Position numbers and translations under genes: made by a program
Origin: a virus
Lineage: Duplodnaviria; Heunggongvirae; Uroviricota; Caudoviricetes
Virus record (IMG/VR): IMGVR_UViG_2713896792_000001
Span: 1 to 36,662 of that record
DNA: 36,662 nucleotides
Reading direction: 5' to 3' (one strand)
Shown: positions 20,149 through 36,633 of the stretch, in pieces
How the letters are laid out: each line of letters starts with the position of its first letter
How positions within the stretch are numbered: the stretch's first letter is position 1
The notes under the pieces: generated by a model
Database searches by the model: none
Told to the model about the DNA's origin: nothing
The model's input: only the letters and a program-made list of their open reading frames with translations

Positions 20149-20490
20149 TCATAGCATTGATAGCACACCACTAACAAAACCTAATGCTGTTTGCATATCT
20201 TTTCTAATTGTCCCATCAGAACACTTACGCTTCTTCGCAATGGCGCGTAATGAAATACCAATAACAAAGTGGGCAATTATTAGCTCATATTCTTCTTGTT
20301 TATATTTACGTAACCGTGCGACACAACCGTCTATCACGATCCCTTCATCATCATCACACTGGAGACGTGTTTTTTTACCATGAGGTAAAAGCCCCTTGAA
20401 GCCTGCTGCTATCGGCTGCCAGTCCACACTACTGTTATCTGCTGCAGCCCATGCTCCCCAGCGGTCCAAAACTTCATACATGTCACGCAT
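20149..20490 (-). CDS. late antiterminator Q (QuuD / phage 82 Q-like)
   Basis: Start at Met7 of track ORF (MRDMYEVLDRWGAWAA...), preceded by GGAGAAAG; N-terminus and AAGFKGL motif match my recollection of E. coli QuuD; upstream of the lysis cassette. Confidence 0.7.
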   Translation of the reverse strand: MRDMYEVLDRWGAWAAADNSSVDWQPIAAGFKGLLPHGKKTRLQCDDDEGIVIDGCVARLRKYKQEEYELIIAHFVIGISLRAIAKKRKCSDGTIRKDMQTALGFVSGVLSML

Positions 20491-20507
20491 CAACTTTCTC
20501 CACAACA

Positions 20508-21503
20508 TCAGCCCAGTACGCCAGTTGCCAGCGCACGATCGATAAAACGAAATATCAGCTCCAGCTGAGAGCCATACTTCTCTTCAAATGCCACGGTATC
20601 CGCATGCAGTTCGTCGTGATGCTTTCTGCACAAAGGCAACACAAAGAGATCATGCGCTTTTGTACCCATTCCCCCCTGACCGTGGCCTATCAGGTGGTGA
20701 GGATCATCAGCAGGCTTTCCACAACATGCGCACGGCTGTGTCTTAACCCAGCGCGTGTACTTTTCATTAACCCAGCGGCGACGTTTTGGGCGTAACATAA
20801 AAGACTCCGGCGACTCCGGATCCACTTTCAGCGCCAGCACCTTTTTCGCCTTATCCTGGATGATGCTGGTGGCAGGAACCGAAGGCACAAGGTCACTTTC
20901 CCGGGTGACAGACGGCACAACAGGATTCGGTAATCTCAGTGCCTTACGGGCTGCGCTTTCCGGTAAGGCATCCGCCAGATCATTACGAACCAGCCACCAG
21001 CACAGTTCCGGCATTGTCACAACGTGACTGTCATCAAAACCGAGATCCCGACGCACAACAGACAACACCCAGCGGGCACAGTTATCCGTTGCCATTGATT
21101 CCAGCCGTTCCGTGAACTGATCGCGCAGCTGGTTATCGCAGTGCCAGCACAGACGGATTGCGCCCGGAGCGTGTCGCATTGTTGTCATGTTCTCGCTGTG
21201 CCAGTCGGAATGAGGCCACTGGCAGCCTTTTTCACGAAGTAACCAGCTTTCAAGACATTCCACGCCACCAGCACGACGGATCACTGCCTCATTGCGGAAC
21301 ACGGCCCGAACAGCAGGATCATCCGCCAGCGGTTGTGATGCCGCCGGAACGGCACCACTGGCAAAAGATGAATAACGTTCTGGCTCAGGCTCCAGCAGGA
21401 CACGCCCCTGCATAAACAGGGGCATCAGCTCTGAACCGGGTCTGAACAATACGATCCCCATACGCGGGGCAATTTCAGGGGTCAGTAATGCTCTCACGGT
21501 CAC
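20508..21503 (-). CDS. DUF968-like protein with C-terminal Cys/His nuclease-like motif
   Basis: 331-aa ORF (GTG start in track; first ATG is Met14); C-terminal PCACCGKPADDPHHLIGHG...CRKHHDELH motif resembles the YdfU/DUF968 family found in nin regions. Confidence 0.45.
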   Translation of the reverse strand: MTVRALLTPEIAPRMGIVLFRPGSELMPLFMQGRVLLEPEPERYSSFASGAVPAASQPLADDPAVRAVFRNEAVIRRAGGVECLESWLLREKGCQWPHSDWHSENMTTMRHAPGAIRLCWHCDNQLRDQFTERLESMATDNCARWVLSVVRRDLGFDDSHVVTMPELCWWLVRNDLADALPESAARKALRLPNPVVPSVTRESDLVPSVPATSIIQDKAKKVLALKVDPESPESFMLRPKRRRWVNEKYTRWVKTQPCACCGKPADDPHHLIGHGQGGMGTKAHDLFVLPLCRKHHDELHADTVAFEEKYGSQLELIFRFIDRALATGVLG

Positions 21504-25600: not shown

Positions 25601-25697
25601 ACGCCCTCCAAACTAAGTTTTATTAGATGCTAATTACAAATCTATCTTTGGTCAATAAAAACTAAGATTACTTAGTAATTAAAGAAATGGTGCTCCT
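25601..25697. promoter_or_regulatory. OR-like divergent promoter/operator region between cro and cI
   Basis: 97-bp AT-rich intergenic region containing ACTAAG (25612-25617) and inverted repeat CTAAG-ATTA-CTTAG (25662-25675). Confidence 0.5.
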
Positions 25698-26324
25698 ATG
25701 GAAACGGTTGGTCAGCGTATAAAAGCTCTGAGAAGAGTTACCAGAACGTCCCAGAAAGAATTGGGTAAATTTTGTGGAGTAAGCGACGTTGCTGTGGGGT
25801 ACTGGGAGAAAGACATCAATACCCCTGGTGGGGAGGCACTTTCGAAATTAGCGAAGTTCTTCAATACGTCAATAGATTACATTCTTTATGGTGCTGAGTT
25901 TGAAGGCAAACTCGTCACAAACATGCGCAGAGTTCCTGTAATATCGTGGGTTCAGGCTGGGCAGTTTACTGAGTGCAGGGCAGCAGAAGTGTTTAGTGAA
26001 GTGGACAAGTGGGTAGATACATCATTAAAGATTGGTGATAACTCATTTGCATTAGAGGTTAAAGGTGACTCCATGACTAACCCTAATGGCCTCCCAACAA
26101 TACCAGAAGGCGCAACAGTGATTGTAGATCCAGATGCAGAACCTCGTCATGGAAAAATAGTCATCGCTCGACTTGATGGAACAAACGAAGCTACAGTAAA
26201 AAAATTAGTCATCGATGGCCCTCAAAAGTTTTTAGTGCCATTAAATCCTCGGTATCCCAACATCCCTATCAATGGTAATTGCCTTATCATTGGTGTAGTC
26301 AAAGGAGTTCAATACGAACTCTAA
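25698..26324 (+). CDS. CI-type prophage repressor (HTH_XRE + S24 LexA-like peptidase)
   Basis: 208 aa; N-terminal HTH (QKELGKFCGVSDVAVGYWE), C-terminal S24 motifs EVKGDSMTNP (Ser) and ATVKKLV (Lys). Confidence 0.85.
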   Translation: METVGQRIKALRRVTRTSQKELGKFCGVSDVAVGYWEKDINTPGGEALSKLAKFFNTSIDYILYGAEFEGKLVTNMRRVPVISWVQAGQFTECRAAEVFSEVDKWVDTSLKIGDNSFALEVKGDSMTNPNGLPTIPEGATVIVDPDAEPRHGKIVIARLDGTNEATVKKLVIDGPQKFLVPLNPRYPNIPINGNCLIIGVVKGVQYEL

Positions 26325-26334
26325 GACCTCTCTT

Positions 26335-26410
26335 CTCTAACTAAGGCACCGAACTAAGAAAAGTTTGGTGTTTTCTCTTGCCATAATAACTAAGTTAAGT
26401 TAGATTTTAT
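26335..26410 (+). promoter_or_regulatory. OL/PL-like region: operator repeats and candidate early-left promoter
   Basis: Three copies of AACTAAG (26339-26345, 26352-26358, 26388-26394); -35 TTGCCA (26378-26383), 17-bp spacer, -10 TAGATT (26401-26406). Confidence 0.4.
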
Positions 26411-26493
26411 GTCAAAGATAACGAACAGGCAGGACGCCCACGAAGTAGCCGCCTGGGGCATATGAAGTCCAGGATGATTCGTTAGCAACAAAA

Positions 26494-26527
26494 AAGCGCC
26501 CTACAGGACGCTTAGCTCTTTAACAAT
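26494..26527 (+). promoter_or_regulatory. nut-like site: short hairpin followed by rrn-type boxA
   Basis: AAGCG-N10-CGCTT hairpin (26494-26513) then GCTCTTTAACAAT (26515-26527), which matches the rrn boxA consensus GCTCTTTAACAA. Confidence 0.35.
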
Positions 26528-26571
26528 CTGGTCCCCATCAACAAGTAACTGATAACTTGAGGAGATGTGAA

Positions 26572-26778
26572 ATGCACAAAACAGAACCCAAAATCGTCGC
26601 GCCTGGCTACACAGATGAGGAAATTTATGAGTGGATGACAAAGAAGCTGGCAGCTATAAACCAGCTTCGTGAAGTGCTGTCTTATCGACAGGAAACAATA
26701 GACTCCTTAAAAAAACTGGATCAGGAAATCACGGTTTTATCACAGGATGTTACTTTAGATATTGTGCAGACAAATTAG
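26572..26778 (+). CDS. small hypothetical protein (first early-left ORF)
   Basis: 68 aa from ATG 26572 with GAGGAG SD 7 nt upstream; not Arg-rich, so not an obvious N homolog. Confidence 0.35.
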   Translation: MHKTEPKIVAPGYTDEEIYEWMTKKLAAINQLREVLSYRQETIDSLKKLDQEITVLSQDVTLDIVQTN

Positions 26779-27184
26779 GATCCCATTCATTTTCGTCAAA
26801 ATCATCAAAGTGATGAATTTGTGATCTCCAGTCTCGATAATCTAAAAATTTCTGGGCGGTTACGCTTATTTTATCAAGTGTGAGTTCATCCTGAATTGAA
26901 AGAAGAAGTTCATCAAATTTCATCTCATTAATCTGTTTTGGCATCCAGTGATGCTTCATCAGAATAAGGTGAACCAGAGCCTTTTTCCCATTCAACTGAT
27001 TATAGGGAGTGCCGAATTTCTTCCGGTGCTCATGTAAGACAAGGTCCAAAAGAGTAAGTAATGTTGCCCTTGATTCAACTTTGCTTATTTCGACTGATGA
27101 CACTACCCCACTGATTTCAATGCCCCGATACTTTCCAACATTTTCACAGTGGGATTTGTACAGCGTATAGATATTACCGGACAT
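26750..27184 (-). CDS. hypothetical protein (immunity-region orphan, 144 aa)
   Basis: ATG at 27184 with AAAGGAAAAG upstream; AT-rich by inspection; convergent with and overlapping the 3' end of 26572-26778; no TM segments. Confidence 0.5.
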   Translation of the reverse strand: MSGNIYTLYKSHCENVGKYRGIEISGVVSSVEISKVESRATLLTLLDLVLHEHRKKFGTPYNQLNGKKALVHLILMKHHWMPKQINEMKFDELLLSIQDELTLDKISVTAQKFLDYRDWRSQIHHFDDFDENEWDPNLSAQYLK

Positions 27185-27471
27185 TTCTTTTCCTTTTGCG
27201 TTGTTGGGGATAACCAGATTAACCGAATCCTTGTTGTTGGGGAATAACTAGGTCCACCTCGCCTGATGTGGCTAAAAGCAGGCACATAACAGCTAAGTAT
27301 TTTCAACCAGAGAGAATCCTTAGCGTTGTGGTGAATGCGGCTCAGCGCACGCGGGTTAAGGTTGAGGCTGACAGTCGACCTTCTGTGGATACCCACCCGC
27401 CTGGTGTGCAACCTTCGCCAGGCACCGGGAGGCACCCGGCACCACAACTTTATGCTGTGTGTAGTCTTGGC

Positions 27472-27515
27472 GGTACCAGCTTGTACCCTTGCTTCCGGCT
27501 GGTACCGTCCTTTTT
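27472..27515 (+). terminator. intrinsic terminator-like hairpin in early-left leader
   Basis: GGTACCAGC (27472-27480) / GCTGGTACC (27498-27506) 9-bp stem, followed by GTCCTTTTTA. Confidence 0.4.
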
Positions 27516-27652
27516 ACAAAACAGAGAAGAGCATCACCGGACGACGGGCTCATAACCCAATCCATCCGGGCGGCAGTCACCGCAGGTGTTCTTCTCTGTT
27601 TTGTGGAGAAACTAACCGACCTTGCAGGGTCGATATGATGAGGAGCAGCAAA

Positions 27653-28015
27653 ATGGCTAGCGAACGCAGTACTGATGTGCAGGCATTTATCGGGGAGCTG
27701 GACGGCGGCGTATTTGAAACCAAAATCGGCGCAGTTCTCAGTGAAGTCGCTTCCGGTGTGATGAACACGAAAACCAAAGGTAAGGTCTCGCTCAACCTGG
27801 AAATCGAACCGTTTGATGAGAACCGAGTGAAAATCAAACACAAACTCTCATATGTTCGCCCGACTAACCGCGGGAAAATTTCCGAAGAAGACACCACCGA
27901 AACGCCGATGTATGTCAATCGCGGTGGTCGCCTGACTATTCTGCAGGAAGACCAGGGACAGTTACTGACTCTTGCCGGTGAACCTGACGGAAAACTCCGC
28001 GCAGCAGGTCGTTAA
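27653..28015 (+). CDS. yfdP: YfdP-like hypothetical protein
   Basis: 120 aa from Met107 of the track ORF (ATG 27653, SD GAGGAG); first of a 120/274/178/120-aa gene run matching the sizes and order I recall for CPS-53 yfdPQRS. Confidence 0.45.
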   Translation: MASERSTDVQAFIGELDGGVFETKIGAVLSEVASGVMNTKTKGKVSLNLEIEPFDENRVKIKHKLSYVRPTNRGKISEEDTTETPMYVNRGGRLTILQEDQGQLLTLAGEPDGKLRAAGR

Positions 28016-35512: not shown

Positions 35513-35776
35513 ATGAAGAAGCGTTTTTCCGACGAACAGATCATCAGTATTCTCCGCGAAGCCGAAGCTGGGGTACCCGCCCGTGAACTCTGCCGCAAGC
35601 ATGCCATTTCCGATGCCACGTTTTACACCTGGCGTAAGAAGTATGGCGGTATGGAGGTGCCTGAAGTTAAGCGCCTGAAGTCGCTTGAGGAAGAGAACGC
35701 CAGACTCAAGAAGCTGCTTGCCGAAGCCATGCTGGATAAAGAGGCGCTTCAGGTGGCTCTTGGGCGAAAGTACTGA
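35513..35776 (+). CDS. IS3-family transposase OrfA (HTH)
   Basis: 87 aa; HTH plus leucine-zipper-like C-terminus ([26 protein letters not shown]). Confidence 0.8.
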
Positions 35777-35799
35777 CGACAGACCAGAAGCGGGAAGCC

Positions 35800-36633
35800 G
35801 TGATGTTGATGTGTGATGCGACCGGTCTGTCGCAACGTCGTGCCTGCAGGCTTACAGGTTTATCCCTGTCGACCTGCCGCTATGAGGCTCACCGTCCGGC
35901 TGCTGATGCGCATTTATCAGGGCGCATCACTGAGCTGGCACTGGAGCGCAGGCGTTTTGGCTACCGTCGTATTTGGCAGTTGCTGCGCCGTGAAGGGCTT
36001 CATGTTAATCATAAGCGCGTGTACCGGCTTTATCACCTCAGTGGCCTGGGCGTAAAACGCAGAAGACGTCGTAAAGGGCTGGCAACAGAACGTCTGCCGC
36101 TGCTCCGTCCGGCGGCGCCCAATCTGACCTGGTCGATGGATTTCGTCATGGACGCACTTTCCACCGGTCGCAGGATCAAGTGTCTTACCTGCGTCGATGA
36201 TTTCACAAAGGAATGCCTGACGGTCACTGTTGCCTTTGGGATTTCAGGCGTTCAGGTCACGCGTATTCTGGACAGCATTGCACTGTTTCGAGGCTATCCG
36301 GCGACGATAAGAACTGACCAGGGGCCGGAGTTCACTTGCCGTGCACTGGATCAATGGGCCTTTGAGCATGGTGTTGAGTTGCGCTTAATCCAGCCGGGCA
36401 AGCCAACGCAGAACGGATTTATTGAGAGCTTTAACGGACGATTTCGCGATGAATGTTTGAATGAGCACTGGTTCAGCGATATCGTTCATGCCAGGAAAAT
36501 TATTAATGACTGGCGGCAGGATTATAACGAATGCCGCCCGCACTCCACGCTGAATTATCAGACACCGTCTGAATTTGCAGCGGGCTGGAGAAAGGGTCAT
36601 TCTGAGAATGAAGATTCCGACGTTACTAACTGA
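35800..36633 (+). CDS. IS3-family transposase OrfB (DDE/rve catalytic domain)
   Basis: 277 aa in the -1 frame relative to orfA; that frame is open from 35740, so an OrfAB fusion by -1 frameshifting is possible; DDE-type motifs ([23 protein letters not shown]). Confidence 0.8.

Follow-up and report, generated by a model that had tools for sequence, protein, structure and literature searches.

Early antitermination is a textbook step of lambdoid development, and to our knowledge only two solutions to it, the N/nut system and the put RNA of phage HK022, have been established. The put RNA, which needs no protein factors to antiterminate, binds the zinc-binding domain of the β′ subunit of RNA polymerase. 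N is missing from many of the lambdoid phages and prophages sequenced so far, and the early-left leader described here belongs to one of these, a lambdoid prophage of the SfV/SfIV/ST64B type without an N gene, represented by the 36,662-nucleotide (nt) stretch IMGVR_UViG_2713896792_000001 (positions 1 to 36,662 of that IMG/VR record; hereafter the window). The leader appears to comprise two separable RNA modules, i.e. a conserved, structured RNA of 64 nt and a hairpin followed by an exact copy of the boxA of ribosomal (rrn) operons. The functional statements made below draw on anatomy, position and conservation.

The closest boxA-only systems are the rrn leaders and those of CRISPR arrays and suhB. 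NusB-NusE recognise an 8-nt core of boxA (PMC3177189), and long untranslated transcripts are shielded from Rho by boxA alone (PMC7665894). For lambdoid phages lacking N it has been openly speculated that antitermination is put-like (PMC12315714). In the literature we found no earlier description of the leader RNA, nor of the use of boxA by N-less lambdoid phages.

Conserved leader RNA

The most conserved and best-supported element of the leader, which is absent from the initial annotation of this DNA, is a 64-nt RNA located between the promoter and the hairpin and starting about 7 nt past the transcription start site that we infer near 26413-26414 (Table 1). Its ends pair to form a closing helix, P1 (26420-26425 with 26478-26483); within lie an internal helix, P3 (26452-26456 with 26469-26473), a pseudoknot (26448-26450 with 26457-26459), the junction AUGA (26474-26477) and an invariant core (26428-26450), the 23-mer GGCAGGACGCCCACGAAGTAGCC.

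The evidence for the fold is comparative. In the 143 distinct sequences that were aligned, pairing holds in 93.6% of cells, as against 70.3% after shuffling, and 490 cells are double changes; none of 500 shuffles and no slid register came near the observed pairing, and mutual information, also computed, is in support. Variants of P1 include ACGAA/UUCGU, GCGAA/UUCGC, CCACC/GGUGG and CAUC/GAUG, and those of P3 include CCUGG/CCAGG, CCGGU/ACCGG, CCGAC/GUCGG, CCCGA/UCGGG and CUACC/GGUAG. The pseudoknot was tested by a targeted search for sequences in which the invariant core ends in a different base. The partner of this final base, the first base of the P3 loop, tracks it (C-G in 64 cases, U-G in 53, U-A in 12, G-C in 7, unpaired in 7), which supports a predicted H-type pseudoknot nested inside P1. 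Some 30 other positions, all unpaired, are invariant or nearly so. The invariance of the 23-mer is partly due to its use as a search query; in the T5-like and Aeromonas copies the core varies and all of the helices are kept.

Model R1, a covariance model derived from the alignment, gives the window RNA 88 bits and detects no second copy in the window, the early-right side included. Over 26414-26490 there is no match to Rfam 15 at the gathering score, nor at E values up to 5, and as far as could be found the family is undescribed and in no curated collection. Wobble pairs alone give an ambiguous strand call (79 G-U versus 60 A-C cells; at the loop-proximal P3 pair, 39-53, where they are mostly C-A, 49 of the cells stem from one subfamily), so the strand was set by the position of the promoter and the orientation of boxA.

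Several other readings of these nucleotides were considered and rejected. CsrA-type GGA sites were ruled out because the GG of GGAUGA covaries with CC within P3. A short encoded peptide was likewise ruled out, given the compensatory changes, the lack of a conserved start codon and an inferred start site lying downstream of the only ATG. A resemblance to the RfaH ops element (GTAGC) is weak, and covariation at the RNA level argues against it.

Distribution of the leader RNA

When SfV is compared with the window, homology starts right after the promoter, about 60 bases are exactly shared, and the homology then breaks; SfV has no boxA. A sensitive BLAST search with the leader found the 60-nt stretch in about 50 phage records, with hosts in Escherichia, Shigella, Salmonella, Klebsiella, Citrobacter, Yersinia, Pantoea, Pectobacterium and Aeromonas and also in T5-like Providencia phages, the boxA part being present in a subset only. 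Searching IMG/VR with GGCAGGACGCCCACGAAGTAGCC gave at least 120 stretches, and a 20-mer search gave 95 places in species-representative genomes, nearly all of them Enterobacterales, with several copies per genome in Xenorhabdus. Each of 352 viral and genome loci that were fetched (about 3.25 Mb in total) has exactly one copy; these too are nearly all from Enterobacterales, the range also taking in an Aeromonas phage and a T5-like phage.

In all annotated cases that were examined, the RNA lies just 3′ of the repressor gene and 5′ of the early-left genes, and in the T5-like phage its place is the pre-early region of the terminal repeat, upstream of A2 and A1. A sigma-70-like site is present in 49% of 292 distinct related flanks (compared with 6% of random 70-mers), ending mostly 12-16 nt before P1, and in the window P1 begins about 14 nt past the -10 element. 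From these distances the RNA would start some 5-10 nt into the transcript. The first open reading frames (ORFs) downstream fall into 115 unrelated clusters, of which N-like ones are rare; this clustering, with family scans of examples, replaced an arginine (Arg)-rich heuristic for N-like ORFs that proved noisy across loci.

A copy of the RNA is present in the E. coli K-12 prophage e14 (70.7 bits; NC_000913.3 1202109-1202178, i.e. L357 6110-6179 on the minus strand), between the repressor gene ymfK and ymfJ, where RefSeq annotates nothing; its pseudoknot partner is UAC instead of GGC. In the T5-like Providencia phage PR1 (L130) the RNA (2001-2071) is accompanied by boxA sequences on the same strand at 2078, 2526 and 2936, about 430 nt apart, a pattern which suggests that this lytic phage may use boxA on its pre-early transcripts. 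Many leaders of the Gifsy/mEp237 type, e.g. L005 and L007, have a different conserved module 10-60 nt past the RNA, A(A/U)(C/U)GCGCAG(C/U)AGG and then CGUUCCGCCAGCCUGGCG, which sometimes precedes the hairpin and boxA module described next.

Hairpin and boxA module

The initial annotation had drawn attention to a short hairpin followed by a boxA closer to the rrn consensus than to that of lambda, and both are present in the order given. The boxA is identical at 13 of 13 positions to that of the E. coli K-12 rrnB leader, and the 8-nt core recognised by NusB-NusE (GCUCUUUA, within the boxA consensus UGCUCUUUAACAA) is found in it. It is the only exact copy in the window, where, by our own arithmetic, about 0.001 occurrences of the 13-mer would be expected by chance. 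In 34 of 256 loci a boxA motif lies at most 200 nt downstream of the leader RNA; about 0.05 such cases would be expected by chance (again our own arithmetic).

In its commonest form the module consists of an A-tract, GCGCCC-loop-GGACGC, UU(A/C), GCUCUUUAA(C/A)A and AUCUGG. Across its variants the loop varies freely, while the stem, the A-tract and boxA are kept, and the sequence that follows differs from locus to locus and is unrelated. Thus the comparison with related prophages that had been proposed shows the module to be conserved as a unit before unrelated downstream genes in many early-left leaders, which argues that it is selected and is not a chance match. Klebsiella phage Kp4882-1 also has the module in its early-left leader, which lacks the 64-nt RNA.

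The leader RNA and boxA are brought together in at least five independent architectures, always with the RNA before boxA. These are the hairpin module as in the window; a Gifsy-type spacer with the hairpin module; and three arrangements without a hairpin, i.e. a 3-nt linker in Xenorhabdus (L322), a 16-nt linker in a Kluyvera locus (L304) and a 9-nt linker in the T5-like phage PR1. From these several independent arrangements it appears that boxA is selected for, and in this order.

On the minus strand the same hairpin is followed by TTTTTTGTT (T6), and so has the form of a textbook intrinsic terminator, facing an ORF of 144 amino acids (aa) on the opposite strand. A long opposite-strand ORF occurs within the next kilobase in 26 of 30 boxA-positive loci compared with 118 of 219 others, an enrichment that is only suggestive, because the ORFs were called mechanically and the loci are related. 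The arrangement fits a two-way insulator, in which the hairpin would stop transcription of the inverted insert leftwards and boxA would protect the early-left transcript rightwards. Given the variable loop, the conserved A-tract and the minus-strand terminator, the hairpin is not simply an analogue of boxB.

Comparison with rrn, put and nut sites

With the rrn leaders the window has several things in common besides the identity of boxA over 13 nt: a hairpin stands immediately 5′ of it, the element lies close to the promoter where a long untranslated transcript begins, and in principle no phage protein is needed. The hairpin-before-boxA order, already likened to that of rrn operons in the initial annotation, is indeed that of the E. 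coli K-12 rrnB leader, which reads GCCGCTGAGAAAAAGCGAAGCGGC-AC-TGCTCTTTAACAAT, with a gap of 2 nt between hairpin and boxA where the window has 1 nt. Unlike the rrn leaders, the early-left leader belongs to an early operon of a phage, its hairpin also serves on the minus strand as a terminator, with a conserved A-tract, and a separate structured RNA of 64 nt precedes boxA.

In general character the leader RNA resembles HK022 putL: both are structured RNAs of about 65-70 nt that belong to N-less lambdoid phages, begin no more than about 10 nt past the early-left start and are strongly conserved, as would be expected for a binding partner as conserved as RNA polymerase. The folds differ, that of the window being a pseudoknot closed by P1 and that of put two adjacent stem-loops, and the leader RNA, unlike put, can coexist with N/nut. 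Model R1 gives no match on putL or putR, as read from the HK022 genome. Homology was rejected, since by eye putL and putR share only CGAAC and CAGGAUGA with the leader RNA; CGAAC belongs to P1, which varies, and AUGA alone is kept throughout the family.

Lambda nutL likewise places a boxA in the early-left leader, and in Xenorhabdus relatives the leader RNA lies 3 nt upstream of a true boxA-boxB-N arrangement. Unlike lambda, the window lacks N, a boxB with a conserved loop and a right-hand site, and its single boxA has the hairpin before it. In lambda, the 33 nt with which the early-left transcript begins (AUCAGCAGGACGCACUGACCACCAUGAAGGUGA; L355, lambda 35518-35582, minus strand) precede boxA and share GCAGGACGC, AUGAAG and GGUGA with the leader RNA. 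The lambda leader may be a degenerate or reduced relative of it, a resemblance seen by eye and unsupported by the covariance model, which gives no match there.

Early-left operon

Table 1. Features of the early-left control region and the adjoining operon in the window
Feature	Position	Strand	Description
cro-like gene	25600-25400	-	divergent from cI
cI-type repressor gene	25698-26324	+	helix-turn-helix and S24 peptidase; phrog_4 transcriptional repressor, E 1e-55
Early-left operator region	26339-26394	+	AACTAAG at 26339, 26352 and 26388
Intrinsic terminator of cI	26346-26379	+	hairpin 26346-26371 and T-run; free energy of folding (dG) -12.6
Early-left promoter	26378-26406	+	TTGCCA (26378-26383), 17 nt, TAGATT (26401-26406)
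Leader RNA, 64 nt	26420-26483	+	covariation, covariance model R1
Hairpin	26494-26513		AAGCGCCCTACAGGACGCTT / AAGCGCCCUACAGGACGCUU; A-tract upstream; 1 nt before boxA
rrn-type boxA	26515-26527	+	GCTCTTTAACAAT / GCUCUUUAACAAU
First early-left ORF	26572-26778	+	68 aa, acidic, not Arg-rich; phrog_1744, function unassigned; no Pfam match
Opposite-strand ORF within the operon	26750-27184	-	144 aa; phrog_5286, E 1.5e-90; same strand annotated in phage 569R4
STnc100-like small RNA (sRNA) region	27295-27518	+	Rfam RF02076, 43.4 bits (gathering score 47), E 9e-8
yfdP-like gene	27653-28015	+	phrog_204; annotation of relatives; first of the conserved block yfdP, yfdQ, yfdR ... xis, int

Over 2.1 kb around the early-left control region the window is 99.9% identical to Escherichia phage vB_EcoS-569R4. 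From 26420 rightwards it matches the Shigella phages SfIV, SfV and SfII and Salmonella ST64B, the immunity regions of which differ from that of the window. The cI gene is transcribed towards the early-left promoter. Leftwards of the cro-like gene follow cII-like, O-like, PerC-like and RusA genes and then a Q-like late antiterminator (20149-20508), and to the right of cI the early-left operon runs through the 68-aa ORF, the opposite-strand 144-aa ORF, the sRNA-like region, yfdP, yfdQ, yfdR and small genes to xis and int. At the right end of the window (35743-35860, plus strand) a full-length match to the IS1222 ribosomal frameshift element (156.6 bits) points to an insertion sequence of the IS3 family.

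The promoter and the overlapping AACTAAG repeats that the initial annotation placed downstream of cI are both there, one copy of the repeat (26388) lying in the promoter spacer. Their identity as the early-left promoter and operators is supported by the confinement of AACTAAG to the two control regions that flank cI. All five exact copies in 36.6 kb are on the plus strand within these regions, the early-right-side ones at 25611 and 25660; the count by itself is unremarkable (17 of 100 shuffles reach five) and it is the clustering that is unusual. A mirror sigma-70-like site, TTGACC-17-TAGCAT, lies across cI at 25655-25627. The copy at 26352 falls inside the loop of the cI terminator hairpin, and equivalent cI terminators precede the promoter in SfV, ST64B, ZF40, YeP1 and AH07.

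The initial annotation saw no recognisable N and a first ORF that is not Arg-rich, and both observations stand. PHROG and Pfam scans of the 20 main early ORFs, together with a scan of all ORFs of at least 45 aa for Arg-rich motifs, found no N-like protein in the window; as a positive control, an ORF of the Xenorhabdus locus L322 matches N-like families. On the plus strand there is no credible coding region from the stop of the first ORF (26778) to the start of yfdP (27653), about 875 nt. The 144-aa ORF, the transcript of which would be antisense to the 68-aa ORF, has a terminator-like hairpin of its own (26668-26643, minus strand), besides that at 26513-26494.

A terminator-like hairpin that had been placed at 27472-27515 is real (stem 27471-27480/27498-27507, dG about -22) and is a strong one, and its assignment is corrected here to the intrinsic terminator in which the STnc100-like sRNA region ends. 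In SfV, SfIV, SfII and ST64B the same arrangement is kept, with this region lying between the early-left promoter and yfdP. The 3′ end of the sRNA region is DicF-like, and at the end of its terminator U-tract begins an inverted repeat with 25-nt arms (27516-27540/27580-27604, plus strand), which could gate the terminator or the translation of yfdP. The segment 27290-27660 folds far better than shuffled versions (z -6.3).

A scan of GC skew for Rho-loading regions gave just a moderate excess of C over G at 26480-26600 and 27040-27200 and is not decisive. A home-made census of intrinsic terminators 3′ of the leader RNA in 230 loci was too permissive, with about 3 same-strand and 5.7 opposite-strand matches per 2 kb.

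Discussion

The single most likely mechanism, which we advance tentatively and at somewhat less than even confidence, is an N-independent, boxA/Nus-based anti-Rho leader, the RNA of which acts in cis on the elongation complex. The nascent boxA would recruit host NusB-NusE (S10) with NusA, NusG and SuhB, as in rrn operons and the leaders of CRISPR arrays, and so render the elongation complex Rho-resistant over about 1.1 kb of mostly untranslated RNA, antisense first to the insert and then traversing the sRNA-like region. The same hairpin, on the other strand, would end transcription of the insert before it reaches the promoter and cI. The 64-nt RNA, at the position of HK022 putL and unrelated to it, most likely would also act in cis on the elongation complex, and could aid read-through of the intrinsic terminator at 27471-27515, so that yfdP ... 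xis/int would be expressed without N. Unless yfdP is transcribed from a separate promoter, early-left transcription has to escape Rho across the untranslated stretch and read through the strong terminator for these genes to be expressed. The antitermination by host Nus factors at boxA that the initial annotation proposed is reasonable and is strengthened by the conservation of the module; it is only part of the picture, since the 64-nt RNA was overlooked and boxA accompanies about 13% of the leaders that have the RNA.

Several observations weigh against this mechanism. About 87% of leaders with the 64-nt RNA have no recognisable boxA, so the two are not obligate partners, and boxA cannot by itself account for antitermination in this group of phages. 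Complexes of the rrn type are best established as acting against Rho, and less so against strong intrinsic terminators. No boxC (UGUGUGGG-like, GU-rich) follows boxA in the window or in relatives of the module, where only AUCUGG is conserved. Copies of put follow both early promoters, whereas the leader RNA has none on the early-right side, in the window or in the 352 loci. By folding energy the leader does not stand out (z -0.54), and the predicted fold misses the covarying helices; it was set aside as being in conflict with the covariation. The yfdP block could, moreover, have a promoter of its own.

A further difficulty comes from five Xenorhabdus prophage loci (L322, L321, L314, L273 and L325), in which one boxA comes after the leader RNA and another is found about 1.1-1.3 kb away, past the repressor and on the opposite strand. 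In the one locus examined in detail (L322, 3501-5100) boxA and a boxB-like hairpin come after the leader RNA, and next is an ORF of 103 aa, Arg-rich at its N terminus, which matches phrog_271 (E 3e-6) and Pfam N_peptide (E 2e-4, below the Pfam cut-off); the second boxA follows cro and has a similar hairpin, both boxB-like loops being GGCAYUC. The leader RNA thus coexists with classical N/nut and is specific to the left operon, which argues that it is not just a substitute for N.

The main rival, which we consider rather unlikely, is that the 64-nt RNA is an immediate-early RNA made for its own sake, boxA being independent of it. It might be a stable 5′-derived RNA that binds a conserved host component, acting in host takeover, as an anti-defence decoy or as a regulator in trans, or it might be a 5′ element protecting the mRNA. 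The coexistence with full N/nut in Xenorhabdus and the lack of boxA in most loci would both be expected in such a case. So would the restriction of the RNA to early-left operons and the T5-like pre-early operon, where host-takeover and anti-defence functions cluster, and its near-invariant loops, which, given how distant the hosts are, indicate a strongly conserved binding partner. It is harder to see why an RNA with such a role should have been juxtaposed with boxA repeatedly and independently, always with the RNA first, and no consistent terminator or processing site follows it by which a small RNA could be released. The overhang of about 5-10 nt before P1 is also long for a protector of the 5′ end.

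It is improbable, in our estimate, that the hairpin and GCTCTTTAACAAT are merely a terminator for the opposite-strand insert, or a bidirectional one, with a boxA match devoid of Nus function. The minus-strand hairpin with its T6 would serve such a purpose well, and the conserved A-tract, the variable loop and the enrichment of the module beside opposite-strand ORFs are all in keeping with it. The 13 bases on the upstream side of the terminator are not needed for termination, however, yet they are the most conserved part of the module and equal the rrn boxA exactly, and Xenorhabdus, L304 and the T5-like phage have boxA after the leader RNA with no hairpin at all.

We think it quite improbable that boxA acts negatively, as in the suhB leader, with Nus factors dampening the first early-left gene or promoting early termination such that the operon is kept quiet. 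It lies about 45 nt upstream of the start of the first ORF (26572), and on the plus strand transcription could pause, or terminate weakly, at the hairpin and the UUAGCUCUUU after it. Against this, the genes that follow boxA and their distances from it vary widely, unlike in the case of a translation-linked repressor, and a long untranslated transcript is the setting in which boxA protects (PMC7665894).

The architecture of the 64-nt RNA, with its closing helix, pseudoknot and many invariant unpaired bases, is typical of an aptamer, and in SfV the 3′ strand of P1 can, as read by eye, pair alternatively with the next segment. That it is a riboswitch-like sensor, a P1-closed aptamer tuning early-left transcription to host physiology, is nevertheless very doubtful, because the aptamer-like fold is joined to no consistent expression platform, at least five unrelated modules being found downstream, and the associated genes share no metabolic theme. 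Least likely of all is an unrecognised N-like protein, e.g. the 68-aa product of the first ORF (conserved with the module in the SfIV-type subset), that uses the hairpin as boxB, since this protein is acidic, with neither an Arg-rich motif nor a family annotation, the hairpin loop varies freely where boxB loops are conserved if N is real, the hairpin precedes boxA, and the module stands before many other first genes.

Returning to a cis-acting leader, it is possible, if doubtful, that the 64-nt RNA represents a new class of cis-acting RNA which, where an immediate-early operon begins, reprograms the RNA polymerase of the host, either by itself or together with Nus factors bound to a neighbouring boxA. 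If so, it would explain early-left or pre-early expression in N-less lambdoid phages of Enterobacterales (SfV, SfII, SfIV, ST64B, Gifsy-like phages, ZF40 and e14) and in some T5-like phages, and would be the second known phage antiterminator RNA independent of protein, after HK022 put. The presence of the RNA in E. coli K-12 (e14), in Salmonella ST64B and Gifsy-like phages and in the Shigella serotype-converting phages makes experimental tests easy. For the lambdoid phages without N, the window offers a concrete alternative, in which an exact rrn boxA heads the early-left operon and a widespread structured RNA occupies its extreme 5′ end. Should that RNA act on RNA polymerase or Nus factors, it would constitute a new class of regulatory nascent RNA; should its role differ, e.g. 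in anti-defence or host takeover, it would still be a conserved immediate-early RNA of phages.

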